Assembly (NCBI GenBank): GCA_964016885.1 | Contig: OZ024743.1 | Location: forward strand, 198,958,001 to 199,022,000 | Reading direction: 5' to 3' | DNA length: 64,000 nt | Source: Eledone cirrhosa | Lineage: Eukaryota | The notes under the pieces: generated by a model | The model's input: only the letters and a program-made list of their open reading frames with translations | What the model was told of the DNA's origin: nothing | Database searches by the model: none | Position numbers and translations under genes: made by a program | Shown: positions 1 through 58,518 of the stretch, one piece after another | Numbering within the stretch: the stretch's first letter is position 1 | How the letters are laid out: each line of letters starts with the position of its first letter

Positions 1-2264
1 CCTGCCAGAAAAAGAAAGAGGGAGAGGGGGTGGAGGAAACCCAGTCGTGCGTTGATAGTGCCAGCTACAGCTGGGTAGGAGGTCAAGGAAGTATACTAGG
101 GAGGGGGAGGGGGAGGAAGTCGAAACAATAAGTAAAACAATATGGGGTAAATATATAGAAAAATACTGAGAATGTTAAAAAAACTATTAAATATAAAAAA
201 AAACAAACAATTTCTGGTTACTATTTCTTAAGGACAGCTATCAAGTCTCTCACTGGTACTGCTAGACTAAAGAAAAGTTTACTAGGTGGGACGGAATTAT
301 AATGAGACCCTATTAAGAGTTAGTAGTAATCACCCGAGTATATCTTACGGTGACGGGTCAATAAGTGTGGGGCAAGATACTAAAGAAACTACCACGAAAT
401 AATAATTCTGAGTCCCGAGACTAATACGAAATAATTGTTTCTACCCTAGGCTCAAGGCCAGCAACCACCCTGTGCAAAAAATAAACTAATACGAAATAAT
501 AATTCAGAATCCCGAAAAAGAATACTAATACTATCTCTAAGGGTGCCGCTACGATACAAAAATTCTAGTGAAAAATACATAAATGCTCGTACGAAGTATA
601 TGAAAAATTTGATACGGAAAATTAATTCAGAGTTCCCCCCCCCCCCCCATCAAACTCTCCTACAGCACCACACCAAACTTTGCACAAAACATCGTCTCCC
701 CTAACAACAAAAAACTCAACCCCTATGGAAGAAATAACCTAAATAGCAGTGGAGAGCCGACCAGGAGGTGCAACTGTCCTGATGGATCCATTTTCCCCCT
801 CAACAACAGATGCAGAGAGCGTAATGTGATCTACCAGTGCAACGTGAGGACGGACACCTCCAACAAAGCTTATATAGGATTAACCGCACGTTACTTCAAG
901 ACCCGGCTATACCAACACAGACATACCTTCTGAAACCCGGCCCGGCGTCACGCCACCACACTTTCGGGCCACATCTGGGACCTCAAGGATAACAATATTA
1001 CCTATGATCTCACTTGGAGCTTACTGTCCAGAGCCAACTCTTACACGGGAGGACGCCGTCCGTGCAATTTCTGCTCGGAGGAAACTTTACAAATGCTGTT
1101 TTCGACGGACCAACTCCTAAACAAAAAAGATGAACTGGTAACTGCATGCAAACACAGATTGCGTAGGACTTACCTCAATATTACCCCATAATTACCGGGG
1201 GGGGGGGGGTAGACGAGGGCTGTAACACCCCACTTGCCGACTTTGTAATGGGTAACTCTTGCTTGCAAAGGTAGACGTAAGATCTTCTCTTCTTTTATAT
1301 CTTTTTATCGCTTCCTCTATATTTCCTTCTTCCCCCAATCCCTCCCTAGTCCTTCCACCCCAGTCCTCTTTCTTTGTCGTCGTCCTTTTCACTTTCTCGC
1401 CCACCCGAGGTAGCCCCTCGGTCATTTGTTGCCTCAGTACCCCCACCCCTTCCTCTATTCTATGATAGAATTGGCCGACTCCGCTTTTTATAGCAGATGT
1501 GATAGACCCCGGAAACTTGCCATCTTATCCGATGGCTGCCCCTTTTCCGTGCTTTCTACATTTCTTAGTGGTATCTTTGCTTTAATTTCTCGTATATCAG
1601 TATTTTTTTTTGGGGGGGGGGGGGGGGGAGACTCTGAATTAATTTTCCGTATCAAATTTTTCATATACTTCGTACGAGCATTTATGTAGTTTGCACTAGA
1701 ATTTTTGTATCGTAGCGGCACCCTTTAGAGATAGTATTTGTATTCTTTTTCGGGATTCTGAATTATTATTTCGTATTAGTTTATTTTTTGCACTGGGTGG
1801 TTGCTGGCCTTGAACCTAGGGTAGAAACAATTATTTCGTATTAGTCTCGGGACTCAGAATTATTATTTCGTGGTAGTTTCTTTAGTATTTTGCCCCCCCC
1901 ACTTGTTGACCCGTCACCGTAAGATATACTCGGGTGATTACTACTAACTCTTAATAGGGTCTCATTATAATTCCGTCCCACCTAGTAAACTTTTCTTTAG
2001 TCTAGCAGTACCAGTGAGAGACTTGATAGCTGTCCTTAGGAAATAGTAGCCAGAAATTGTTTTTTTTTTATATTTAATTGTTTTTTTAACATTCTCGGTA
2101 TTTTTCTATATATTTACCCCATATTGTTTTATTTATTGTTTCGACTTCCTCCCCCTCCCCCTCCCTAGTGTACTTCCTTGACCTCCTGCCCCAGCTGTAG
2201 TTGGCACTATCAACGCACGTCTGGGTTTCCTCCACCCCCTCTCCCTCTTTCTTTTACTGGCAGG
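1..2264. repeat. Long inverted repeat (arms 1-648 and 1612-2264; left arm may continue beyond the window edge)
   Basis: cctgccagaaaaagaaagagggagaggggg... at 1 mirrors ...ccccctctccctctttcttttactggcagg at 2264, and the match continues to the poly-C/poly-G runs at ~635-648 and 1612-1628. Confidence 0.95.
649..1191 (+). pseudogene. PLE GIY-YIG endonuclease C-terminal fragment (Naiad-like), one in-frame TGA at 931-933
   Basis: Manual translation: IKLSYSTTPN...RCNCPDGSIFPLNNRCRERNVIYQCNVRTDTSNKAYIGLTARYFKTRLYQHRHTF*NPARRHATTLSGHIWDLKD...CNFCSEE...LLNKKDELVTACKHRLRRTYLNITP*. The CNC..PL...C linker, VIY...YIG, FKxR..H, TxLSxHIWxLK, CxxC and LLNK..EL..C.H motifs are characteristic of this clade. Confidence 0.88.
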
Positions 2265-2369
2265 TTCAGCTACCCCTTCCTTCCACAAATTGCCATGATA
2301 GAATTATGTGTATCAACAACAAACTTTTGACCAATCCTTGTGACAATCACTTTTACCATATATGGAATT

Positions 2370-2465
2370 ACCCCCTGAGAAGCTCGGCTATTCATATACC
2401 AGGATAAAAATGTTCATTTACTCCACAATTAGCCGTCGAAACGGCTTTAGCTCAGCCATCGGGGT
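2370..2465 (+). ncRNA. Type I hammerhead ribozyme, family A, mutated copy in PLE UTR
   Basis: ACCCC-CUGAGAA-gcuCGGCUA...UAGCCGuc-GAAA-CGGCU(uuagcuc)AGCCA-UC/GGGGU. It has a C3.A8 mismatch and a stem III mismatch relative to the intact copy at 57949. Confidence 0.7.
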
Positions 2466-2559
2466 CCTACTCGTTCCTATTACCCACTCTACTACCCTAA
2501 GTATTGAGTACTTTGGTGCGTTATGGTCCACCTGGTTCCTTACTACATTTCCTTCGTTA

Positions 2560-11424: not shown

Positions 11425-11428
11425 TATA

Positions 11429-11626
11429 GAAACGAGTAGGACCCCGACGGCTGAGCTCAAGCCGTTTCGACGGCTAATTCTGTACAGAATTAGCCGTCGA
11501 AACGGCTTGCGCTCAGCCGTCGGGGTCTTGCTTAGTCCTATTACCCACTCTACTACCCTAAGTATTGTAAGTATTGAGTACTTTGGTGCGTTATGGTCCA
11601 CCTGGTTCCTTACCACTTTTCCCTCG

Positions 11627-11627
<1 letters not shown>
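11429..11627 (+). mobile_element. Short fold-back derivative of the PLE 3' terminus in (TA)n
   Basis: 44-bp-arm palindrome at 11440-11527 centred on ctgt|acag, followed by the same terminal ~100 bp as 2461-2556. Flanked by (TA)n on both sides. Confidence 0.85.
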
Positions 11628-11722
<95 letters not shown>

Positions 11723-11726
11723 TATA

Positions 11727-11788
11727 GAAACGAGTAGGACACCGACGGCTGAGCTCAAGCCGTTTCGACGGCTAATTCTGGACTAAAT
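11727..11788 (-). mobile_element. Inverted PLE terminal fragment (3' half of HHR A) in (TA)n
   Basis: Reverse complement of atttagtccagaattagccgtcgaaacggcttgagctcagcc..., as at 57993-58050. Confidence 0.8.
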
Positions 11789-11789
11789 C

Positions 11790-11822
<33 letters not shown>

Positions 11823-11824
11823 CC

Positions 11825-11879
<55 letters not shown>

Positions 11880-11881
11880 CC

Positions 11882-12356
<475 letters not shown>

Positions 12357-30970: not shown

Positions 30971-31207
30971 TTATTATCATTATTATTATTATTGAATACC
31001 ATGGTTGACGGAGGCTCGGCTCTGTAAGGTATAGTAATTTTTAACCGCTATAACAATTGTAAATTGTTTAAAACTTTAACCAAATTGTAGATAAAAATAC
31101 CCTCCTCCTCGTGAGAGGGGTCTTTCTGCCCGTTATTTGGCCCTTTGCGGTTAAATAACCGCTTATTGGGGTTTTGTGCCCAATATTCATTTTAAACAAA
31201 AAAAAAA

Positions 31208-33290
31208 ATGGCTACGAAAAAGAATTTTTCACAAGTCACTCCCACTCATTCCGTCTTCTTCCTCAATCGTCACTACATCAGAGAGAAGATTGTCTCTCTA
31301 CCTCCCTTCTCTAAATGTATCTCTCTCCCTCCCTTCTCTTTCGCAAGCGACGCCATTAAAAAAAAGAAAAATATAGTTTCTGATAGCCTTCACCAAGAGC
31401 ACGTGCATACGGTGGAACATTTCTCCACGACAACGATGAAAAATGTGTGCGGTAAATACGCAAAGCCGTTTGATCCGTCTGACGTCATGAAGAATAGCAG
31501 CAGCAGCCGTAATAAAAGCAGCAGCAGCAACAGTGACAAGGAAAGCACTAGTAGCAACAACATCATCAGCAGCATAAACAACAGCAGCAGCAGCAACAAC
31601 AACAACAACCACAGCAACAGCGGCTGCGGCGGTCGTAGTACCAGCAGCAACAACAAAAGTAACAGCAGCTCTGACGACAACAACAACAAGGAAGAAAAAC
31701 CAATCTCGTTTGCAGGTATCGCAAAGAACCTGGAAACCATCCTTATAACAAATGAGGAATTACAGGAAGCAAAGAAGATGGTGACGAAAACCGGACACCT
31801 AGCAATCTGCAAGGCAGCCGAAAATTTTTCAAAACCCAACAGCACTGTACGGTCACGTACAGTACAGTAAGCACAAAATCCCGTAGGGTTGAAAGAGCCA
31901 CAGAGGCTCAAATACAAAAAGCCTTAGGGTCTGTGTGGCAGCGGAAAACGCATATCAACCGAGGCAAGAAATATTCTTTGCCACACCCCAGGAGGCAAAG
32001 TGACCCTAAGGAGCGAGTAAATGGTGATGGTGCCCGCCTAGTGCGGGCAAAAAATTGTGAGGGTCAAACTGATCCACGTCCTTCCCCGGGATGGCCCCTT
32101 CTTGGCTGGCCGCGTCTGTCCTCGTCGGAATCAAGGACAAAACAACTGTACTGCAAGTACACAAAAAAGTACGAGAAGATTGGGTCAGCAACACCATTGA
32201 GATGTTAATCCAAACCAACCAGGAGTGCATCGAAACTATCCCGGATGTGATAGACTTCGATAACGGCACTCAACTGCCCATAAGTGTTGAGGGCAAACGC
32301 CCGAAATGCTTTCGCTGTGGATCGAAGACTCACCTCAGGGCCTTCTGCAATGAGAAGACCCTGAAAAAGGAGAAAACCCTCCTCGTTCCGAAACAGGCTC
32401 CACTGCTAGCAGCAACAGAACAGGCGGCAACCAGGAAGGATAGGTCCGTGGTACCCATACCCACGCCACGGAAATCAAGAACAGCAGCAGAAGTGGAAGT
32501 ATTAACAACAACAACAGTAAAACCAACTGCAGCTGCAGCAGTGACTCCACTGCAAACATCACCAACAACAACAAGCGAAAGAGTGGAGCTGGTACCCCTC
32601 CCCGACCTCACAGAATCGAACATGGAGTGTGAGGTGGGAGATGGATGCAAAAAGGTCGCAAGAAGGCACAAACGCAGAAGCAGCACATCGTCGCCTTCGA
32701 AAAGGGAGGAAAGAAATGAAAAAAGGGTAAAGGCTACTGCAAAGAGACATACAGCAGCGACACCACAACACCATCACCACCTACACTAGCACCACCATCA
32801 CCACCGGCGGCAACCCCACCGCCAACTACAACAACACCTTCAACACCACCACCACAGGCACCAACATCGCAAACACAGCAACAAAACTCACACACCCAGC
32901 AACAATGACAAGAATATAGCAGAACCACACCCCACCCCCAGAAAAACAAATGCACAGCAATAAATACACACAAGAAAGTAATGACTTACATAATTGAACA
33001 CACAGACATTTCACAGCACGACTACATAATACCAGCACCAATCAAAACACCAACGAACATAAGACTGCTAAAAAATATCACAGAAACAATACACAAACAT
33101 TAAAACGAAATTCCCCAACGCAGTTGGTGATTTCAGAGACCTAGAAGGGACACTCAACCGGAGAGTATATTCGGATATACTCACAGAAGAGCCGACGACC
33201 AGCCGAGGGGACGATACAACGGCCCCTTCACGAGACGATCAAGTGAAAAGGGATTGAGAAACCATCCTTCTTCTACGAGAAGTAAGGTAA
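31208..33290 (+). pseudogene. Tx1 copy A ORF1 (nucleic-acid-binding, zinc knuckle), frameshifted
   Basis: ORF pieces 31208-31870 and 32091-32789 contain VEGKRPKCFRCGSKTHLRAFC (CX2CX4HX4C), low-complexity S/N and P/T tracts, and a basic stretch. Confidence 0.8.
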
Positions 33291-33324
33291 GTGGTCTTTC
33301 CCATCTTTTCTACTCCATTTCAAC

Positions 33325-36300
33325 ATGACCTCACTCAATAGGCAGCATAAATGCGCGTGGTTTGGGGTCGTCATGGAAGCAGGGCCACCTGGTCAACGAC
33401 CTTAGGTCACTAAACATAGATGTAGTGGCCATCAGCGAATCCATAATCTCCGAAGCACGGGCCTTCGCACCGATTTTCGGCGGCTACGATGTGTACGCAT
33501 CTCCCAACCGTCCGGGATCGGGGGGTGGAGTTGCTGTGCTTTTTCGGAGAGGTTTGGATCTCGCCATACGGGCCATCTTCCTGGACCCAGAAGGTAAGTT
33601 GGTGGTGCTGGACGTGACCAGTGGAGACGGGCAAGCTTTCAGGCTAGTGGCCGTCTATGCCCCGACAGGAGCAGGGCGGCCTGATTTCTTCCGGCGTCTA
33701 GAGACCTTTCTTGGAACGTCCTGCTCTTGGTGTTAGTGGGCGACTGGAACGGGATCTTAGATGCACGCTGGGACTGTGTGGGATTAGCGGATAGGAGAGG
33801 ATGGTGCAAGAGCCTCACCAACATGCTCAGGCGTTTTAAACTGTCTGACAGGTACCGATTGGATTTCCCGAATGTGCCAATATGGACTTGGACAAACCGC
33901 ATAGGGTCATCCAGATCATATCTAGATAGAGTATTTTGTAGGGAAATAGATTGGCTGTCCACAATTCAAGATAGTCAGCTACACGGACCACAAATTCGTG
34001 ATCTGTGTGCTTGACTTAGATAGGCTTCATAGACGAGGACCCGGCTACTGGAAGCTAAACACGTCCTTACCAGCGCGCAAGGCCTACAGAGACCGGATTA
34101 GCGAACTAGTTAAGCGGGCGTTGACGGGGGCCATCGTCAACAACAAGTGGTGGTTTGCTCTGAAAAGAGCGATTAGAATAGAGACCATTAGGTTTAGTAA
34201 GGCATTAGCAATAGAGAAAAATAGAGCAGAGGGAGAACTAGTTAGAAAATTAGACGAGGCGCTTAGCAAAGGCATCGCGACCGACGTACTTGCGGCGAAA
34301 TTGGCCCTTGACCAATTCTTCAATGCAAAGCACGAAGGCTGCGTTTTCAGAGCTAGGGTGCGTGCTCGCAGACACGAGGGGACGAAAGCCATTCAATGGG
34401 CCCGATTGGCAGAGGCGCGTCGTGGCAACAAAGCCACGATCCGGTCTTTGGTGGAACGACGGGCGCATGCTACTCGATTCCGAGCAAATGTGTGAAGCTT
34501 TTCAGCGACAGTTCGCTCAGATGTTCGGGGGCAGCGGCGGGCCGGTTCGATGGATGGACTTTAGTGTCTACCTCGACGGACTGCCGCGGCTCTCGGCCAC
34601 TGAGGCGGAGTGTTGCCAAAAGCAGATAACAGCCGCTGAAGTACGGGAAGCAATGACTGGCTGCACAAGGTATAAATCGCCTGGTTTGGATGGTCTGCCC
34701 TATGAACTTTACGTACAGATGCCAGACTTGTTCGGAGGCCTCTTGGCGGACGTCTACTGCAACTGGCAACAGAACGGGATAATTCCGAGCTCTGTGAGCC
34801 GAGGAGCGGTGGCGCTGCTGAGAAAGAATCCGAACAAAGGGGATAACATATATAATTTCAGGCCCATAACTCTGCTAAACACAGAGTTCAATATTTTGGT
34901 CAAGGATCTAGTAAAAGGTTGGCGCTTGTCGTTGGTGGTCTGGTGGGATAGGCGCAGACATGCGCCATTCCCGACAGATCCATCCACGACTACCTCCACC
35001 TCATGCGATACATCGTAGAGAGAGTAGCTAGGGAACCTGGCACGGGTGGGTCCTTGATCAATTTAGATCAGTCGAAAGCTTTCGATAGGGTCGACCATCG
35101 TTACCTAGCGGCAGTCTTGAGGGTGGCTGTCTTTGGGCCCGTCTTCAGAGGCTGCATCGCTGCCATGCACAGCGACATCTGCTCTGTGGTGAGAGTGAAC
35201 GGTCACCTCTCGGAACCGTTCAACATCATGCGCTTGGTCCGCCAAGGTGTCGCCTCTCGTCCCTCATGTACGTATTGACTCTCGAGCCATTATTGCACAA
35301 ACTGGAGACGTTGAGGGGGCGTCCCGCGCGAACTAGAATGCGGAAGATCCGTGTCAGCATATGCGGACGATGTCACCGTAGTGGTGTCGAACGCCAAACA
35401 CATCGAGGCGATCGGCACTACACTAAGAGAATACGAAGCGTTGACAGGAGCAATGATCAACCAGGAAATGTCAGTGGGCCTGCAGCTCGGCACCTGGAGA
35501 GGTAGGTCCATGCCGTCCAACAGCGTAGTCGGGCGCTGGACGGACGGACCGGTTAAATTGCTAGTAGTCTGGTTCTGTCCGGACCTCCAGACGGACAAAA
35601 TCTGGGACGAAGTGACAAGCAGGGTGGCTTCACTCACCCAGAAATGGGCAGAGAGGAAGCTATCCCTGAAAGGTCGAGCCGAGGTGACTAACGCGTACAT
35701 CGCGTCCGTCATCTACTACCGCCTGGCCGTCGTACCTTGTCCTAACCCTCCCCTGACTGCGCTGGAGCGTTTCCTCTTTCGCTTTTTGTGGAAGGGACGC
35801 GCTGCGATGGTCAGGCGGTCCATCTGCTGTCAACACCCGCTACGTGGCGGGATGGGCATGCCGTGGCTGATGATGCGCAGACACGCGCTCAGGCTACGAC
35901 ATCTCCACCTCTTCCTCGACGGTAATCAGGTGTTGTCTCCGTTTGCTAGACGCGTCTTTCCCCAGCTCGTCTCTTTGACGGCGCTGCAGTCCTGGGTCAA
36001 GCGAAGACCGAGAGGGAGCGCTTGGAGACTGGAATGTCTTCAGGGGCTCACAGCCTTCGACCAATCGGGCAATGTGATCGGTGGAAACTCCACCTTGGCG
36101 TTCTATAGGGGATTAGTGGAGGGAAAGTGCGACGACGTACATGGGGAAACTCTAGGCGTCGATGAAAATCAACTAGCCAATCTCTTCAGTTCAGGATAAA
36201 CTCTACAGGCATTAAGGTGCCATCAGCCGGGCATGTCCGAGATGCGCGCAGGGCGACGAAACCTTCCTGCAGGCACTCGTCCAGTGTCCGAGCATTGCTG

Positions 36301-36653
36301 ACTTGTGGGTTTATTTCGAACACCTGCTGTCGCGTGTAGGACGGATCCAGCTATCAGCTGAGTCCATCGTGAGGATTTCCCCGCCATCTTCCTTTAGCCG
36401 AGAAGGGCAGGGAGTTTTTATCTGTCTGGTGGCCATGGCGAAAGAAATAGTATGGTGGACACGTTTGAAAGGGCTGAAGACGAGCACTTACCTCTTCGGT
36501 GATGCCCTGATCAACTTTTTCAAATTTCATTTAAAAAGGAAAATCAGGGTAGAGAGGGAAGTGCTCTCTTCCCAGCATTTTGTTGAAAGATGGGTGAGAG
36601 AGGTAAGAATGGCCCGAGTGAATGGGCGTACTCTAAGTATGTCTGTAAATTAA
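33325..36653 (+). pseudogene. Tx1 copy A ORF2 (APE endonuclease + reverse transcriptase + CCHC), multiple frameshifts
   Basis: Motifs GGVAVLF, VYAP, GDWN, LDRVF, GPGYWKLN, SPGLDGLP, RPITLLN, LDQSKAFDRV, AYADD, GGMG and CPRC...VQC. Confidence 0.92.
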
Positions 36654-36903
36654 AGGTGGAAAACTGGGAGAGGGCACTTGCCCAGGTGGTCAGGGTCACT
36701 GTGGCTTTTTAATGGGCTTTCTCCACGAATGTCCCTCGGAAGTCTCCTCCCTATTGGGGAATTCTTTTCATTGTTCTATTATTACATCCTCTGATTTTTT
36801 GTTATTTTACACGCAGAAATGCCCATTTGTACCGTCCGGTATTGTCCTTTACTGTCTGTCCTTAATGTCTACTTTATGTAAATCCTTGTGGTTAATAAAG
36901 AAA

Positions 36904-37038
36904 GCATAGTTACGTCCCTTTACGATCTGAGTTCAAATTCCGTCGAAGTTTCTTTGCCTTTCATCCCTACGGGGTCGATAAAATAAAGTACCAGTAATGC
37001 ACTGGGTATTTGCTGGCCTTGTGCCTAAAGTAGAAACA

Positions 37039-37040
<2 letters not shown>
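36904..37040 (+). mobile_element. SINE (5'-truncated) at the Tx1-A 3' end
   Basis: Joined via agcat microhomology; ends gtagaaaca(att)n. Confidence 0.88.
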
Positions 37041-37071
<31 letters not shown>

Positions 37072-37073
<2 letters not shown>

Positions 37074-39800
37074 AGTTGCATTTATCTTGCTTTATGTTCA
37101 TACGAGTTATCACCAAGTCACGACCAGTGACCTCAAGAGACAACAATGTCCGCCATGTTCAAGAAAGTACATACATACACACACATGCATCTTTAGGTGA
37201 TGTACTTATGTTGATAGAATCTTCCTTAGTATATGGGCAGTTCCCATCAGTACTATCTTTTGCATTTCTCCTATACGCGGTTTTCCTGGGATTTGCGATA
37301 AGTAATCATTAGACCCCTTAGGTATCATTCCTAGAGCGCCTACAACCACTGGTATTGTTTTAGTTCTCAATTTATACATTTTTCCAATTTCCATCTCCAG
37401 GTCCTCATACTTGCTTAATTTTTCAAATGTTTTTATAGATACATTCGTGTCTATTGGAACGAACATATCAATTAGCAGGCATACCCTCTTTTTAAAGTCC
37501 TTCAGTATTATTTCAGGTCTATTTGCATCTATTTTTCGGTCTGTTTGGATGCTAAAGTTCCACGAGATTGAGATGTAATCTTTTTCAAGTATGGGAGGTG
37601 GTTGATGCTCCCACCAATTCTTTTGACGGGGCAGGTCAAAATGCTTACACATTATCCAATGTATGTATTGTGTCTGTCATGCCTGTTTAGGTATTCGGTT
37701 GGATCTATAGGACTGCACATTGAAATTATATGATCAATGGTCTCTAGTTGTTTTTTACATGCACTGCATAATGGGTTGCATCCATTTTTTATTATGTTGG
37801 CTTGGTAATTTTTTGTTGGCAGACACTGATCTTGTGCTGATATAATCAGTCCTTCAGTCTCCGATTTCAGTCCAGAGGATGCCAACCACTGATGGGTTAA
37901 AGTTTTGTCAACATCAGGATTGTTATCTCTTTCTGGGTATTTTCCATACAGAAGCTTTTCTTGCCATTTCTTAGCCAGTTTCTGTAGCAGTTCTTTCTTT
38001 GCAGTTACTTTTACCTGCTTTGCTTTTTCTGTGTTTTCCATTTCAGCAGTAAATGGGACTTCTGAAAATTATAGTCCATTACTCTATCTTTGTGCATCTT
38101 TTGTAATGGAGTATGATCTTTTGATGCTTTCGTGTTTCAAAACGAGTTTGATCATCCAATCATGTGATTCCCTTAGATATGTAGATAATACAATTGTTGC
38201 AGTTTTCAACGCAATATCTAAGTGGATTAACCCACGTCCTCCTTCTTTCCTAGGGAGATATATTCTATCTGTATCTGCCTCAGGGTGATGCATTCTGTGC
38301 ATGGTTAAGAATTTTCTAATTTTTGTATCGAGCCTACGGATCTCTGTGCTTGACCAGTTGATGACATTGTAACTGTAGGTTACTACTGGTATGGCAAGCG
38401 TGTTTATGGCATCGATCCTATTCTTTGCATTCAATTCCGTTCTTAAGATTGCTCTTACTCTGCGGTAACATTCCTTCCTTATCCTTTCCCTCATTGTCGA
38501 GTGCTTGATTCCATCTCCTTCACAAACACCCAGATATTTGTAAGTTTCCTCTTGATCAAGTTCTCTTATCACATTCCCCCGATCAAGATTAATGTCTGAA
38601 ATTTTCAGCAGCTTTCCACTGGTGAACGTTGCTTTGGCGCATTTATCTAGTCCAAACTCCATTTTAATGTCATCACTGAACTGCTCCACAGTGGATAATA
38701 GCCCTTGCAATTGTTCATCACTTTTTGCAAATAGTTTCAGGTCATCCATGTAGAACAAGTGATTAATGGTTTTGTCATTGACTTTATATCCATGTTTTGT
38801 TTCATTGAGCATTTTACTTAATGGTATAAGTGCGATGCAGAATAAAAGCGGTGATAAAGAGACACCCTGAAAAATTCCACAATTAATATTAACTTCTCCA
38901 GCTTCCAGTGATTCCTTTTCACTATTCAAAAGGAGTGTCGTTTTCCATGACTTCATACTGAATGACAAGAACCTCCTGACAACAGGAGATATTTTGAAAA
39001 TCTTTAAACATTTTTCAATCCAACTGTGTGGCAAACTATCGAATGCTTTTTTATCCAAGCAATTGATAGATTTTTGTGTCTATTATGACAATCTTCCAGT
39101 ATCATTTTGTTAACCAAAAGCTGATCCTTACAGCCATATGAGCCTCGTTTATTGGGAAATAGGTCATTTGTTATCAGGTGGTCATATGTATATTCAGTTA
39201 GGACTGATGTTAAAATTTTTTACATTGCGGTCAAGTAAGTTATCGGTCTGTAATTTTTGGGATTGTTTGTCTCATCATTCTTCGGAAGCAGGAATGTAAT
39301 GCCGTTAACTAGCCATTATGGTATCTTTTCTGGCTCCTTAACTATTTCATTGTAAAGTTGGGCTAACAGCTCATGAGACTCTGTGAAGGCATTTATCCAG
39401 AAATTTGGTATTTTGTCTTTTCTTGGGGATTTCCATTTGCTGTTTTTTCTAAGAACCAAACACATCTGTTCAACTGTTATATTTTCCCATATTTGTTCCT
39501 CAAGGTGAGCTTTATCTTTCATTTGTCTGTCTATCCCTTTGGCATGTATATTATGGACTTTTTCTTCGGCCCAGATTTTTTCCCAGAATTCTTGCACTTC
39601 CTCCTTGGGTGGTATTGATTTAGCAGTTATTGTTGACTTGCCAATTTTTCTGTAGAAGTTTCTTTGGTTGTTTTTGAACATATTATTGACCTTATAGAAT
39701 CTAGATCGTTTTTTAAAGCGCCTTATACGAGCAGCTTTGGCCGACACTTTTTGCTTGATTATTTCTATCAGCATGTCTATGTCACTTGTTGATTTTATAC
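37072..39800 (-). mobile_element. R4/Dong-clade non-LTR retrotransposon (RT + restriction-like endonuclease), 5'-truncated
   Basis: Flanked on both sides by (TAA)n in its own orientation, matching the known TAA-repeat targeting of Dong elements. The 3'UTR is 37072-37205. Confidence 0.9.
37206..39790 (-). pseudogene. Dong/R4 RT-CCHC-RLE polyprotein, frameshifted
   Basis: Motifs WKSPRKD.IPNFW, KKAFDSLPH, GIFQGVSLSPLLF, HLFYMDDLKLF, YKYLG, YLPRKEGGRGL, AQDQCLPT, CSAC..ETIDHIISMC, RHD, NRPEII..ID..P..EKLSKY and PVVVGALG. Confidence 0.93.
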
Positions 39801-39852
<52 letters not shown>

Positions 39853-40065
39853 GGCGACCTACGTAGTAAATCGTATCATCGTGAGCTCCGCAAAGGTTTG
39901 TTGTTTTCGTTTGTTTAAAATTGCCATTTATGGAAATGTTTTATTGTTAACTGTATATAAGTGCACATACATTGTTTTCCGAAAAGGACACTCAAAAAGA
40001 TTGGGCCTTGAGCCCAAAATTTAAACTTTTATAATTATTAAAAAAAAACTTTCTTTTAAAATGAC

Positions 40066-40569
40066 GTGGATGACTCACAGCCACACGAAGCTGACAGCCT
40101 TCCTCACAAACTAACACCTCAGACCGACACCACCATTGTAAATATTACTACGTTTGCCAACACTAAAAATATAAGCAGTAGCAATATTTTTAATTTGTCT
40201 AAGGCAGGCATTTATTTCCCGCCATTACCAATGACTAGAGGTGTTAAAGCCGCCAACCCCACCACCACCACCACCACCACAGCGACAACAGAAACAAAAG
40301 AAAGAAAGAAATTAACTCGTGATATCAAAATGAATTCAACCAAAATGAACTCTTCCACACCGAACACCACTGACGCCACCACCACCACCACAACTGAAAC
40401 TAAAATTAATAATAACAAAAATAACGATAACAACAACAGCAACAATGAAATTAAGAAAACCATCCTGAGTTTTGCCAGAGTAGCAAAATAGGGCGAAGCA
40501 TTTCAGGTAACTCAGGAGGAATTAGAAGAAGCCAAAAAAATGGTAAAGAAAGATGGGTACAGGGTCAGC

Positions 40570-40600
<31 letters not shown>

Positions 40601-42024
40601 CTAATAAAATGGAGCATCGGCGCCTATGCACCGCGTCTTATCGAAAAATTAATATAAAATCGCGCCGAGTGGAACCGGCATCCGAGTCCCAAATCCAAAA
40701 ATCTTTGGGACATGTGTGGGCAAAAACCCCCACATCAGACGTGGGCAGAAATATGGAACCGTGGACGTGTTCTTTGAAACACCACAGGAGGCTAGAGAAC
40801 ACTCCATGGCCCCATTAAGAAGTGACGACTTCACACTCGTCCCAAGCTATTGTGGCCAGAGACTCGTAAAGATCAGGGTGACCCACGTTCCACAGGCCAT
40901 CGAAATTCCCTGGCTAATAGCTGCCGTCCTCGCGGACATCGAAGCCAACACCAAGATAATCGAAATAGCGAAAGAAAAGCAGGTCCGGATCTGGGATGGA
41001 ACTCCTGATCCAAGCGGACCAAAAAAGCATTGAGGAGATCCCAGAGGTAATAAACCTCACTGACGGCAGCCACCTCACCGTAATTGTCGAGGGCAGAAGG
41101 CCTAGGTGTGTCGTTTGTGGTGAAGGAACCCACCTAAGGGCTTTCTGCCCTCAGGCTAAAAGGTTGAAGCCACCTCTCCTACCCACTCCAGTGACTCAAC
41201 CATCAACACCACCAGCAGCAGAGATGGCAGCAACAACTGAAGCAGCAACAACAGAAGCAACTGTAACAGCAACAACCCCAGCAACAGTAGCAAAACCAAC
41301 ACCACCACCACCCAACGTGACAGAACTAGCACCAGCGCCTACACCAGCCACTACGCCACAACCAAAACAAACGCCTGTGGAGGATTTTCTACTCCCCGAC
41401 CTATCACAACTGGAGACTGATTGTGAGGACGAGAAGTGGGAAACGGTATCAGGAAAAAAGAAAAAAAGAAACCAAAAAAGAAAAAATTCTCTTCCTTCCC
41501 CCTCCAAAAACAAAATACAGAAGGAAACAAATAAACTATCAAACAAAAAAGTTTGGACAGATATGCCACCATCCACACCAGCATCACCAACCCCATCACC
41601 CCAAACACCAACACCATCACCATCATTTACCCCAACACCACCATCACCTACACCACAAAAGTCACCAAAAAGCGAAACAGAAACAAACCCTCAACAAACA
41701 CAAACAAAACAAAACAACAAAAAAGATACACACTACACAGCATTAAATTTGAACAACAACCAATTATTACACTACATCCAACGCAACACCAGCATCACAG
41801 AAAAAGACTACACAACAACCCAAAAGTTCACACCTCCTCCACTCATACAAATCACTCGCATCACACAGAAAACGTACATGACACTAAAACAAAAATTCAC
41901 CAAAGACATCGGAGACTTCCGACAAGCACTCTCCAGGTGGATTTATAAGGACATCCTTCCTGAGGAGGCCACAGGCAGTGAAAAGGATGGAGAAACCGTC
42001 CTTCCTCTACGAGCAGTAAGGTAA
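40066..42024 (+). pseudogene. Tx1 copy B ORF1 (zinc knuckle), frameshifted
   Basis: Pieces 40066-40491, 40540-40818, 40716-41033 and 40996-42024 contain VEGRRPRCVVCGEGTHLRAFC. The start codon is uncertain. Confidence 0.8.
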
Positions 42025-42058
42025 GTGGTCTTTCCCATTATTTCCAATCTATTTCGAC

Positions 42059-45000
42059 ATGACCTCATTCAGAATAGGCAGCATAAATGCGCGTGGCTTG
42101 GGGTCGTCATGGAAGACGGGCCACCTGCTCAACGACCTCATGCCACTAAACATAGATGTAGTGGCCATCAGCAAGACCAGAATCTCCGAAGCACGGGCCT
42201 TCGCACCGGTCTTCAGCGGCTACGATGTGTACGCATCTCCCAGCCGTCCGGGATCGGGGGGTGGGGTTGCTGTGCTTTTTCGGAGAGGTTTGGATCTCGC
42301 CATACGGGCCATCTTCCTGGACCCAGAAGGTAAGTTGGTGGTGCTGGACGTGACCAGCTGAGACGGGCAAGCTTTCAGGCTAGTGGCCGTCTATGCTCCG
42401 ACAGGAGCAGAGCGGCCTGATTTCTTCCGGCGTCTGGAGACTTTTCTTGGAACGTCCCGCTCTTTGGTGTTAGTGGGTGACTGGAACGGGATCTTAGATG
42501 CACGCTGGGTATTTGTGGGATTAGCGGATAGGCGAGGAGGGTGGAAGAGTCTCACCAACCTGCTCAGGCGTTTTGAACTGTCTGACAAGTATCGATTGGA
42601 TTTCCCGAATGTGCCAATGTGGACTTGGACAAATCGCATAGGGTCATTCAGATCATATCTAGATAGAGTATTTTGTAGGGAAATAGATAGGTCTAGCATA
42701 GGCTGTCCACAATTCAAGATAGTCAGCTACACGGACCACAAATTCGTGATCTGTGTGCTTGACTTAGATAGGCTTCATAGACGAGGACCCGGCTACTGGA
42801 AGCTAAACGCGTCCTTACCAGCGCGCAAGGCCTACAGAGACCGGATTAGCGAACTAGTTAAGCGGGCGTTGACGGGGGCCATCGTCAACGACAAGTGGTG
42901 GTTTGCTCTGAAAAGAGCAATTAGAATAGAATCCATTAGGATTAGTAAGGCTTTAGCAATAGAGAAAAATAGAGCAGAGGGAGAACTAGTTAAAAAATTA
43001 GACGAGGCGCTTAGCAAAGGCATCGCGACCGGCGTACTTGCGGCGAAATTGGCCCTTGACCAATTCTTCAATGCAAAGCACGAAGGCTGCGTTGTCAGAG
43101 CTAGGGTGCGTGCTCTCAGACACGAGGGGATGAAATCCGTTCAATGGGCCCGAGTAGCGGAGGCGCGTCGTGGCAACAAAGCCACGATACGGTCTTTGGT
43201 GGACCACGACGGGCGCATGCTACTCGATCCCTGGCAAATGTGTGAAGCTTTTCAGCGACACTTCGCTCAACTGTTCGGGGGCAGTGGCGGGCCGGATCGA
43301 GGGATGGACTTTAGTGTCTATCTCGACGGACTGCCGCGGCACGCGGCCACGGTGGCGGAGTGTTGCGAAAAGCCGATAACAGCCGCTGAAGTACGGGAGG
43401 CAATGACTGGCTGCACAAGGGGTATATCGCCTGGTTTGGATGGTCTGCCCTATGAACTTTACGTACAGATGCCAGACTTGTTCGGAAGCCTCTTGGCGGA
43501 CATCTACTGCAACTGGCAACAGAACGGGAGAATACCCAGCTCTGTGAGCCGAGGAGCTGTGGCGTTGCTGAGAAAGGATCCGAACAAGGGGGATAACATA
43601 GATAATTTCAGGCCCATAACTCTGCTAAACACAGAGTTCAAGATTTTGGCCAAGGTGCTAGCAAAGTGGTTGGCGCTTGTCGTTGGTGGTCTGGTGGGAT
43701 AGGCGCAGACATGCGCCATTCCCGACAGATCAATCCACGACAACCTCCACCTCATGCGATACATCGTAGAGAGGGTAGCTAGGGAACCTGGCACGGGTGG
43801 GTCCTTGATCAATTTAGATCAGTCGAAAGCTTTCGATAGGGTCGACCATCGTTACCTAACGGCAGTCCTGAGGGCGGCTGGCTTTGGGCCCGTCTTCAGA
43901 GGCTGGATCGCTGCCATGCACAGCGACATCTGCTCTGTGGTGAGAATGAACGGTCACCTTTCGGAACAGTTCAACATCATGCGCTCGGTCCGCCAAGGAT
44001 GTCCCCTCTCGTCCCTCTTGTACGTATTGACTCTCTAGCCATTACTGCACAAACTGGAGACGTTGAGGGTCGTCCCGCGAGAACTAGGATGCGGAAGATC
44101 CGTGTCAACCAGGAAAAGTCAGTGGGCCTGCAGCTCGGCACCTGGAGAGGCATGTCCATGCCGTCCAACAGCGTAGTCGCGCGCAGGACGGACGGATCGG
44201 TTACATTTCTAGGGTTCTGGTTCTGTCCGGACCTCCAGACGGACAAAAACTAGGACGAGGTGACGAGCAGGGTGGGTCCTCTCACCCAGAAATGGGCGGA
44301 GAGGAAGCTATCCCTGAAAGATCGAGCGAAGGTGGCTAACGCGTACATCGTGTCCTTCATCTACTACCGCCTGACCGTCGTACCTTGTCCTAAGCCCCGC
44401 CTGACTGCACTGGAGCGTTTGCTTATTCGCTTTTTGTGGAAGGGACGCGCTGCGATGGTCAGGTGGTCCATCTGCTGTCAACACCCGCTACGTGGAGGGC
44501 TGGGCATGCCGTGGCTGATGATGCGCAGACACGCGCTCAGGCTACGACATCTCCACCTCTTCCTCGACGGTGATCAGGTGTGGTCGCCGTTTGCTAGACG
44601 CGTCTTTCCCCAGCTTGTTTCCTTGACGGAGCTGCAGTCCTGAGTCAAGCAAAGACCGAGAGGGAGCGCTTGGAGACTGGAATGTCTTCAGGCGCTCACA
44701 GCCCTCGACCAATCGGGCAATGTGATCGGTGGAAACTCCCCCTTGGCGTTCTATAGAGGATTAGTGGAGAGGAAGAGCGACGACGTACTTGGAGAAACTC
44801 TAGGCGTCGACAAAAATCAACTAGCCAATCTCTTCGGAAGAACTTTCGGGCCGGGGCCTATGGACAACTTCCAGAAATCCCTAGCCTGGCAGTGCTACCG
44901 AGGAGTTTTGCCAGTTCGGGATAAACTCTACAGGGATGCAGGTGCCGTCAGCCGGGCATGTCCGAGATGCGCGCAGGGCGATGAAACCGTCATGCACGCA

Positions 45001-45346
45001 CTCGTCCAGTGTCCGAGCATTGCTGACTTGTGGGTTTATGTCGAACACCTGCTGTCACGTGTAGGACGGATCCGCCCTCTTCCTTTAGCCGGGAAGGGCA
45101 GGCAGTTTTTATCTGTCTGGTGGCCATGGCGAAAGAGATAGTATGGTAGACACGTTTGAAAGGGCTGAAGACGAGCACTTACCTCTTCGGTGATGCCCTA
45201 ATTAACTTTTTCAATTTTCAATTGAAAAGGTAAATCAGGGTAGAGAGGGAAGTGCTCTCTTCCCAGCATTTTGTTGAAAGATGGGTGAGAGAAACAAGTA
45301 TGGCCCGAGTGAATGGGCCTACTCTGAGTATCTGTCTGTAAATTAA
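42059..45346 (+). pseudogene. Tx1 copy B ORF2 (APE + RT + CCHC) with stops and a deletion of the YADD motif
   Basis: MTSFRIGSINARGL, SYTDH, GPGYWKLN, RPITLLN, KAFDRV, VRQGCPLS and CPRCAQGDETVMHALVQC. About 110 bp containing AYADD is missing at ~44107. Confidence 0.92.
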
Positions 45347-56031: not shown

Positions 56032-56348
56032 ATACCTTCCTGCCAGATAGTTGAACGTCCGAAAGTATATACTTTCCTTATGCATATTAACGGCTGAGTA
56101 TATGTATGTATATATATACATACTACTGTACGTCTGTATACATATATGTATGTACGTATACATACTTATATTTAAGTAACAGCCGTACTAAGAGTGGGAA
56201 ATGAATTTTCGTTTCATTTTTTCCGTTTATCTTTTTCGGTGCACCCGGCCGATTAACCGACTCGATATGCAAATTGGGCTACTCAGCCGTTAATATGCAT
56301 AAGGAAAGTATATACTTTCGGACGTTCAACTATCTGGCAGGAAGGTAT

Positions 56349-56391: not shown

Positions 56392-56667
56392 TCCTTTGTC
56401 AGTGTTGAACAAATGAGCAACGATGGTTGCTAGACACTTTACAGCTTAATTCGGGATGTTTGTTTACAAACACACCGAGCATTATAATAAATGTTCGCCG
56501 AATCCATACGTACATATATATATATATATGTGTGTGCATGTATGTATATATATGTATACATACTACTGTACGTCTGTATACATATATGTATGTACGTATA
56601 CATACTTATATTTAAGTAACAGCCGTACTAAGAGTGGGAAATGAAATGTCGTTTCATTTTTTCCGTT

Positions 56668-56700
<33 letters not shown>

Positions 56701-58133
56701 GTTTTCGACGGACCAACTCCTAAACAAGAAAGATGAACTGGTTACTGCATGTAAACATAGATTGCGTAGGACTTACCTCGCCCTCAAACCCCATAATGAC
56801 CCGGGGGGGGGGGGGTAGACTAGGGCTATAACACCCCACTTGCCGATTTTGCAATGGGTAACCCCTGCTTGCCAAGGGAGACGTAAGATCTTCTTTGTAT
56901 TCTTTTATCGCTTCCTTTATTTCCTTCCTTCCCCCCTCTCTCCTTAGTCCTTCTACCCCAGCTCTTCTCCTTTGTCGGCGTCTTTTCTCGCCCACCCGAG
57001 GCTGCCCTTTGGCCCCTTGTAGCCTTAGTACCCCCATCCCCTCCCCTAGTCTAGGATAGATTTGGCGGACTCCGCCCTTTATAGCAGTTGGTTTAGACCC
57101 CGGATACTTGTCCCCTTTTTCCGACCGCTCCCACTACTCTCTGTGCCCTCTATATTTCTTAGTGGCACTTATGCCTTATTTTTTCGTTTCAGTATTTCTT
57201 TCTTCGCTTTTCTTTTGGGCGGGGTGGATTCTGAATTTATTCTTCCGTATTCTACTTTTACTTCGTACGAACTTTCATGTAGCTTGTTTTAGATCTTTTA
57301 GAGTTAGCATTAGTATATATTTTTCTCGGGACTCAGAATTATTATCTCGTATTAGTTCACTTTGCTGCACTGGGTGGTTGCCGGAATTGTGCCCGGGATG
57401 GAAACCTTTATTGTTTATTTCGTGGTAGTCTCTTTAGTATTTTGGCCCCTTTTGTTGACCCGTCACCGTATCATTTACGTACTTATACCTCTTAAAAGGG
57501 TCCTCGCCTATAACGTCCCACCTAGTTCTTTTACTTATTTCGTTATTTCTTTATTTCTTTCTTTACTTCTTTCTTTCTTTCTTTATTTATTTTTTCTAGA
57601 CTAACAATAGCTAGAGACCTAGGTCGTAGAATTTAATTTACTTTACTTTTTTCTTTACACTCATTTGTTTTTCTTTACACTTATTTGCTTTTCTTCACTC
57701 TCAGTATTATTTCTACCCCCCATTGTTCTACCTACCGTTCCGACTTCCTCCCCCTCCCCCCTCCCCCTCTCCTGTATCTTCTTTGACCTCATGCCCAGCT
57801 GTAGCTGGCACTACAAACGCTTGATTGGGGCTACTCCACCCCTCCCCTCTTTCTCCTACTGGCAGGTTTAGCCACCATCTCCCCTACTAATTTGCAACCA
57901 CAGAATTACTACTGATTTTTGACAATCACTTTGACCATATATGGAATTACCCCTTGAGAAGATCGGCTATTTAAATACCAGGATAAATTTTCATTTAGTC
58001 CAGAATTAGCCGTCGAAACGGCTTGAGCTCAGCTGTCGGGGTCTTACTGGTTCCTATTACCCACTCTACTACCTCAAGTATTGAGTACTTTGGTGCGTTA
58101 TGGTCCACCTGGTTCCTTACCACATTTCCTTCG
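56701..58133 (+). mobile_element. Naiad-like Penelope element 3' end, second subfamily, in (TA)n
   Basis: Starts with FSTDQLLNKKDELVTACKHRLRRTYL (as at 1099-1176). The UTR is collinear with 1190-2556 and ends ccttcg|ttat(at)n. (TA)n lies on both flanks. Confidence 0.88.
57949..58042 (+). ncRNA. Type I hammerhead ribozyme, family A, U3-A8 core, structurally intact
   Basis: ACCCC-UUGAGAA-GA(u)CGGCUA(37-nt loop)UAGCCGUC-GAAA-CGGCU(ugagcuc)AGCUG-UC/GGGGU, with predicted cleavage after C58037. Confidence 0.78.
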
Positions 58134-58518
58134 TTATATATATATATATATATATATTAGCTTATATCTCTATTTATTTACTTGTTTCTAATACGTAAAC
58201 ATCTCAATGAAAGGACAAGATATATTTATAATTTATCTTCTCAGAAATGTATTAAAATATATTAAATTTGGAATTGCTGATGTTGTATCCTGAGTGGCAG
58301 AAACCATTTTTGGGGTATTATATAAGTTAAAACCCACTTTTATAGCCGATATGGCATACAAGTTTAATACATATATATGTGTGTGTGTGTTTGTGAGTGT
58401 GTGTGTGTTAAGTGTTTCCGTGGAAAAGGCAAAGGAGAGAAGAGTACTCTATGTATAGTACAGAGCTATTTAATTATGTAACAAACAACACAATATAATT
58501 ATTATAATTACGAAGATT

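Follow-up and report, generated by a model that had tools for sequence, protein, structure and literature searches.

The 64,000-nucleotide window analyzed here (the whole stretch from position 198,958,001 to 199,022,000 of the forward strand of contig OZ024743.1, Eledone cirrhosa assembly GCA_964016885.1) carries a 5'-truncated copy of a Penelope-like element (PLE), which retains the end of the endonuclease open reading frame (ORF), about 1.15 kb of 3' UTR, a pLTR with a hammerhead ribozyme motif, and a tail. Further copies and short palindromic insertions of the same family lie elsewhere in the window (Table 1, numbered from the first base of the window).

Table 1. Coordinates of the element copies, the hammerhead parts, and the associated features in the window
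Feature	Position	Strand	Evidence
Copy of an older C3·A8 subfamily that keeps a GIY-YIG remnant; its hammerhead region lies at 2370-2465, and an inverted arm occupies 1-644	647-2557	+	sequence, translation, tree
Pair of short head-to-head insertions plus a solo arm, each with its start in loop II	11426-12145	.	sequence
Three short head-to-head insertions of older subfamilies (14157-14326, 19616-19810, ~21735-21883)	14157-21883	.	sequence
3' end of the RT-GIY-YIG ORF: 39 codons (LLNKKDELVTACKH, with the CxH motif), then stop	56699-56818	+	translation matches the end of P0001
5'-truncated Hydra-clade Penelope-like element, youngest subfamily, (TA)n-flanked	56700-58134	+	92-99% identity to the L071 intact tandem unit; sequence
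Stem I 5' strand (57949-57953) and extension (57943-57948)	57943-57953	+	fold; C-G/G-C swap 57950/58041 in the oldest relatives
Catalytic core U3 U4 G5 A6 G7 A8 A9 (UUGAGAA)	57954-57960	+	sequence; genome counts
Stem II (57961-57969/58007-58014) with 37-nt loop II	57961-58014	+	fold; A-U/G-C compensatory change 57965/58011
Initiator-like TTAGTC, A57997 the likely transcription start	57995-58000	+	arm starts; untemplated G
GAAA, stem III (58018-58023/58031-58036), near-palindromic loop III, GUC	58015-58037	+	sequence; predicted self-dimer
3' strand of stem I, with G58038 as the first nucleotide of the product left by cleavage; short arms of the element end near 58056	58038-58057	+	junction arm ends; short arms
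~80-nt tail between two element ends	58058-58134	+	short and long arm ends; mechanism from the available text of PMC11167929

The hammerhead motif of the window copy has three helices around its core and an open stem I, which is the arrangement of a type I hammerhead. Stem I pairs ACCCC (57949-57953) with GGGGU (58038-58042) and can be extended by pairing of 57943-57948 with 58049-58054; stem II has eight pairs and one bulged U; the GAAA lies at 58015-58018, and stem III has 6 bp closed by a 7-nt loop. The cleavage triplet is GUC with C17 at 58037, and 97 nt separate C17 from the element end (~58134), where (TA)n begins. The conserved hammerhead positions U4, G5, A6, A9, G12, A13, A14, A15.1-U16.1, and H17 are all present, and positions 3 and 8 form a Watson-Crick pair as U3-A8. 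The earlier note had described these helices, the GAAA, the GUC triplet, the UUGAGAA core, and a long stem II loop, all of which are found as described. An alternative core register lacking N7 can be discarded, since position 7 is variable (by eye, some 77 G, 14 U, and 9 A in the first 100 listed matches), while U4, G5, A6, and A9 are intact in 30/30 loci chosen by an anchor placed only upstream. The end of the extended stem I also coincides with the short-arm end.

The hammerhead is the predicted minimum-energy structure of the window copy, with an ensemble probability of ~0.47; the fold energy is no better than that of shuffled sequence (z of -0.9), and hence the case for a hammerhead rests on the family and not on the energy of a single copy. 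The segment comprising stem III and its loop (58018-58036) is nearly palindromic, with a predicted dimer of -26.3 kcal/mol versus -4.9 kcal/mol for the hairpin. A 5-bp complement between loop II and the tail (ACCAG/CUGGU), a candidate tertiary contact of stem I with stem II, occurs only in the youngest subfamilies, and a loop II-tail pseudoknot was dropped as not conserved. The window copy carries a genuine type I hammerhead motif with a U3-A8 core.

Rfam returns no hammerhead match for this motif; over the whole window it yields only microsatellite-driven miRNA matches among the 150 listed of 319, and local scans are likewise without a hammerhead. The same holds for all five of five loci with canonical C3-G8 cores, so the U3-A8 pair alone is not the cause of the miss, which is likely explained by the long loop II.

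The identity of the carrier can be read from a tandem copy elsewhere in the genome (L071), whose 3,118-bp unit contains an intact ORF (719 aa, counted from the first Met). This ORF has YRDD at 348 followed by a C-terminal VIY..YIG at 591, DKT (not DKG) at 117, RLRWR at 35, a CxCx5C linker (CNCPDRSIC) at 572, CNLC at 670, and CKH at 698; it lacks GxK[FY] and, with only one Cys between VIY and YIG, CCHH. Three pieces of the ORF gave no Pfam match. As set out in the available text of Craig et al. 2021 (PMC8557442), Hydra-clade PLEs have a single ORF with a reverse transcriptase (RT) followed by a C-terminal GIY-YIG domain; the C-terminal GIY-YIG, the DKT, and the CxCx5C linker match the diagnostics given there, and insertion in (TA)n with a hammerhead in the pLTR is likewise as expected for the clade. 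Hence, judged by its diagnostic motifs, the carrier is a Hydra-clade element. That the motif is a type I hammerhead lying within a PLE's pLTR is borne out, and the label "Naiad-like" has to be given up: Naiad elements share the (TA)n preference, pLTRs, and inverted arms with the carrier; unlike it, by the account in PMC8557442, they have an N-terminal endonuclease, a DKA motif, and no canonical hammerhead. The L071 ORF has no N-terminal GIY-YIG and has DKT in place of DKA, and the element has a full hammerhead.

The two element ends that bracket the tail are likely two reverse-transcription start sites. The tail region also holds a near-duplicate, CTGGTTCCT(A)TTACC, at 58045-58075 and 58106-58123. 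Beside the element lies a separate repeat (56100-56230 versus 56540-56670, 97% identical over 71 nt) within inverted arms (55828-56100/56280-56552), and farther away, stop-free frames of 130-446 codons cluster at 31196-45141 and may be exons or the remains of a retroelement.

The second copy with a hammerhead region in the window (2370-2465) reads CUGAGAA in its core, as reported earlier; it has a stem III mismatch (AUC triplet) and is not predicted to fold as a hammerhead. Two of the short insertions, 11426-11633 and 11938-12145, are near-identical, down to a shared junction and a shared 7-nt insertion in the tail, indicating local duplication after insertion. In the insertion at ~21735-21883, one arm lies at the equivalent of 58037/8. 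Outside the window, a small contig (G000:C440; L145 and L353) has an old U3·G8 relative every ~26.5 kb, four times over, which is a large tandem duplication.

Genome pattern searches with the flank fixed returned 5,434 copies, of which 3,974 (73%) are U3-A8, 1,409 (26%) are C3·A8 and so have no Watson-Crick pair at positions 3 and 8, 46 are U3·G8, and 5 are C3-G8. In an independent DNA run, whose contigs (of unspecified kind) served only to gauge depth and variant shares, C at position 3 accounts for 24%, and no variant of position 8 exceeds the 5% threshold. The earlier note had proposed a family consensus and helix covariation as checks: the majority of genomic copies are U3-A8, and stems I and II each show one compensatory, double-sided change between subfamilies. 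The youngest subfamily additionally gains an A-U pair at 10.2/11.2. In an alignment of 169 copies the core is unchanged at 10 positions across 11 subfamilies, an invariance partly built in by the search patterns for the old subfamilies, and loop II and the upstream flank show ~1.5 extra states per column between subfamilies. The predicted probability of the hammerhead fold has a median of 1e-11 to 0.05 in most subfamilies versus 0.47 in the youngest, and an alternative hairpin is predicted to beat the hammerhead in most of them.

Of the 177 full-hammerhead copies, 42 span 110 codons or more of the endonuclease region and were used for a tree. This tree is a ladder, leading from a divergent outgroup through U3·G8 and older U3-A8 copies and ten successive C3·A8 copies to young U3-A8 subfamilies, among which that of the window copy sits. 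A single C3·A8 clade (p-AU of 3e-4) and a single clade of all U3-A8 copies (p-AU of 2e-62) are both rejected, each group having been named after the tree was seen. Within-subfamily divergence declines along the same series, from 0.092 in the old U3-A8 through 0.073-0.025 in C3·A8 to 0.029-0.014 in the young U3-A8 subfamilies. As C3·A8 forms the trunk between older and younger U3-A8, the U3-A8 of the window is a restored pair. The earlier note had described C3·A8 as a mismatch; with 1,409 copies and a position on the trunk, it is an amplifying state of the lineage and not decay, the element having kept multiplying while mismatched. For the deepest part of the tree the order of core states is unsure, given that its G8 rows came from G8-targeted searches and that the divergent sister family is mostly U3-A8 (about 87 U3-A8, 6 U3·G8, and 4 C3-G8 among the first 100 matches of an unbiased search, counted by eye). 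The composition of the sister family also weakens a simple route from C3-G8 through U3·G8 to U3-A8.

Most copies of the family do not contain the whole motif. Exact matches to its 3' half number 52,348 in the genome versus ~5,400 for the core, a tenfold difference. Among 117 arms sampled on one contig (C1), 98 start at 57991-58008 with a mode at 57997-57998, 18 are full, and one starts at 57981; among 100 arms anchored in the tail, 65 start at 57991-58008, 20 at 58009-58035, and 5 at 58038-58039, with 10 full. About 85 to 90% of copies start inside loop II at an initiator-like site. The short copies consist of two arms set head to head in (TA)n, with the end lying ~20 nt past C17 in one arm and ~95 nt past it in the other. 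These two ends match the two internal sites at which reverse transcription of an Anolis PLE begins in vitro, as described in the available text of PMC11167929.

The left edge of the arms is the A of TTAGTC or TCAGTC. Both hexamers resemble the initiator consensus. In the 63 arms that hold A57997, 14 continue upstream, 16 have a preceding base that is explained by the partner arm, and 18 have the reference T; the remaining 15 are informative, and 9 of them have an untemplated G before A57997, as expected from the copying of a cap. The Penelope start site also falls in the pLTR, according to the available text of PMC2377424. We hold with good confidence that the main RNA starts inside loop II, and this main RNA class would have been uncut at C17. 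The earlier statement that the ribozyme processes the transcripts of the element has to be narrowed on the same grounds, as most retrotransposed templates were evidently uncut there.

This start site bears on a model proposed by Cervera and de la Peña (available text of PMC4209133), under which cleavage would be obligatory: unit-length RNA cut at both ends would be ligated to a circle, the template of long and tandem copies, with the short insertions as by-products. Such a model would account for the conserved core and for the tandem copies L071 and L072, which extend upstream of 57997 through a complete hammerhead. We consider it improbable, as the RNA behind ~85-90% of insertions began in loop II and had its C17-G1.1 bond unbroken, a C3·A8 phase was tolerated, and read-through or template jumps would also yield tandems. 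In this last regard, the units of one tandem (L291; G000:C1:27009150-27010400) restart at 57997; each of its 254-nt units runs from the 57997 equivalent to just inside the ORF, which suggests that the RT jumped templates at the 5' end of the RNA and used a third priming site.

A second, rarer boundary lies at the predicted cleavage site. A pattern search for junctions in which both arms match downstream of the cut site retrieved 748 ultra-short head-to-head insertions (control, 5), and all of the first 50 were analyzed. In these, 40 of 100 arm ends lie at 58038, with both arms exactly at 58038 in 15 insertions and 5 further insertions blunt, CCCCGGGG, which are ambiguous due to CG microhomology. 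The 27 junctions of this set without microhomology have 54 arms, 36 of which end at 58038, 5 at 58039, 3 at 58040, and 4 at 58044, with none of the 54 at 58037; the excess at 58038 has a binomial p of about 1e-30. In the 100 tail-anchored arms, the four that end at 58037-58038 form two pairs (p of 4e-4); of 140 arms partnered with an upstream-starting arm, none ends there. There are a few mixed junctions (window 21753, L317, and L338). G58038 is preceded by T or A in 33/37 cases and by G in 4/37, so that an untemplated G is found in 9/15 cases at A57997 versus 4/37 at G58038 (Fisher p of 6e-4). Coupled arms without an extra G are the pattern expected from run-off at an uncapped 5' end at G1.1.

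The very high copy number and similar size of the short palindromic elements might suggest a non-autonomous, MITE-like family spawned by a few masters, such that the boundary peaks would not be independent. This is very improbable and largely refuted, as the junctions differ base by base and occur on backgrounds of every subfamily age. For the 58038 class in particular, the events are spread over at least four tail backgrounds with different inserts and are therefore independent.

A more serious alternative would keep the conserved hammerhead fold and attribute the 58038 boundary to pausing of the RT once past the G run that lies at the base of stem III, or to a minor start at C/G, with a ribozyme that is nearly inactive in vivo. 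Position 58038 indeed opens a G4 run two bases from stem III, making a polymerase pause conceivable, and 1,409 copies were amplified despite a mismatched 3-8 pair. Further, a dead C3·A8 ribozyme would predict a drop of the 58038 class, and it persists in tails typical of the C3·A8 era (3 events in 10 sampled arms versus 12 in 31 for the youngest U3-A8 tail), including one event with a tail seen here only with C3 cores (L314). The absence of a drop counts against cleavage, an argument softened by the fact that one C3·A8-era tail is also common to a U3-A8 subfamily. Mutants of the Anolis PLE hammerhead, too, left insertion unimpaired in vitro (available text of PMC11167929). Against pausing, the two arms stop together, and none of the partners of upstream-starting arms stops at the site; 58037, the unpaired base beside the stem, ends no unambiguous arm; in RNA beginning at 57997, the predicted helix runs through 58042; the class has no cap-like G; and the site was predicted beforehand from the ribozyme fold. 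On this balance, we regard pausing or a minor start as unlikely, if by no means negligible, and ribozyme cleavage at C17 in vivo as probable from the genomic junctions. The 58038 class likely records such cleavage in about 2 to 4% of the templates of short insertions.

We infer how the element might work from what the analysis shows: a hammerhead fold, the number of copies in each core state, a Hydra-clade carrier, a ladder of subfamilies, and sharp 5' boundaries at 57997 and 58038. We consider it fairly likely that the U3-A8 type I hammerhead, located in the pLTR of a high-copy Hydra-clade PLE, cuts a minority of RNAs after C58037 in the germ line. With transcription starting in loop II, the 5' pLTR of the RNA would hold only the substrate half, and a complete ribozyme could assemble only within the 3' pLTR, by pairing in trans, or in a dimer. 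The element protein might start reverse transcription at the two internal sites, ~20 and ~95 nt past C17, using opposite nicks in (TA)n; both cDNAs would then run off the RNA 5' end and be joined head to head. A capped RNA end would give the common 57997 class, and a 5'-OH end produced by the ribozyme would give the rarer 58038 class. Cleavage is likely to be partial, protein assisted, and not needed for most insertions, which would explain how the lineage survived a C3·A8 phase and later regained the pair. In the available text of PMC11167929, the Anolis PLE hammerhead is similarly protein assisted and dispensable in vitro.

More tentatively, and in our view less likely than not, the hammerhead could define a terminal redundancy like that of retroviruses, with the C3·A8 core also being active. 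RNA from 57997 to the self-cleaved C17 (58037) of the 3' pLTR would carry a 41-nt repeat at both ends, and cDNA primed in the 5' pLTR would run off as a strong-stop product. This product might integrate as the dominant short element, or it might transfer to the 3' repeat, whereupon the whole element would be copied and the ribozyme rebuilt; the released downstream product would yield the 58038 class. If true, the genome would preserve, to the base, a fossil record of how the ribozyme acted in vivo over a natural series of 3-8 pair states.

A U3-A8 core is by itself no news. The earlier note had presented it as a variant that standard CUGANGA motif searches would miss, and it had already been published: about 1,300 U3-A8 motifs are reported for Schistosoma PLEs (Cervera and de la Peña 2014, PMC4209133), and others for further natural hammerheads (Perreault 2011, PMC3088659), in the available texts of both. 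What the Eledone family adds is its difference from the described Hydra-clade relatives, together with two 5' boundaries sharp to the base, a number of arms above 50,000, and 3-8 states in a dated order, by which a start site and cleavage become readable from DNA alone and directly testable. A literature search over titles and the beginnings of abstracts, with most subscription papers outside its coverage, found no PLE insertions bounded at a hammerhead cut site, no start site inside a ribozyme, and no amplifying C3·A8 state. The role of the hammerhead in endonuclease-bearing Penelope elements is stated to be unclear in the available text of PMC8557442, and the single biochemical study on the subject is that of the Anolis element.

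By that same account, the Eledone family shares with Hydra-clade PLEs the DKT, RW(R/K), the CxCx5C linker, the lack of CCHH, CxxC and CxH, as well as (TA)n targets, an inverted 5'-truncated arm, a tail, and a hammerhead near the 3' end. The hammerheads of the clade listed in File S2 of Craig et al. are all C3-G8 with a loop II of at most 10 nt, unlike the U3-A8 or C3·A8 cores and 37-nt loop II found here; the 6-bp stem III, 80-nt tail, and 3.1-kb unit are further differences. The minimal hammerheads of the Schistosoma Cercyon PLEs, as portrayed in the available text of PMC4209133, resemble those of Eledone in core covariation, pLTR location, long stem II, and palindromic loop III; they differ in that stem III is here long enough for a monomer, no extra base lies between A9 and G10.1, and the C3·A8 state was amplified on the trunk of the lineage. 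Palindromic inverted junctions and initiator-like motifs in pLTRs have also been noted before and explained by antisense self-priming (available text of PMC3846280). Another parallel is with Poseidon of Anolis (Frangieh et al. 2024, PMC11167929, as far as its available text describes it), which likewise has two element ends with the tail between them downstream of the hammerhead, AT-rich targets, and a largely uncleaved template. Poseidon, however, belongs to another clade and has a canonical C3-G8 core, and while no RNA-seq reads are reported to end at its cut site, in Eledone DNA insertions pile up at precisely that position.
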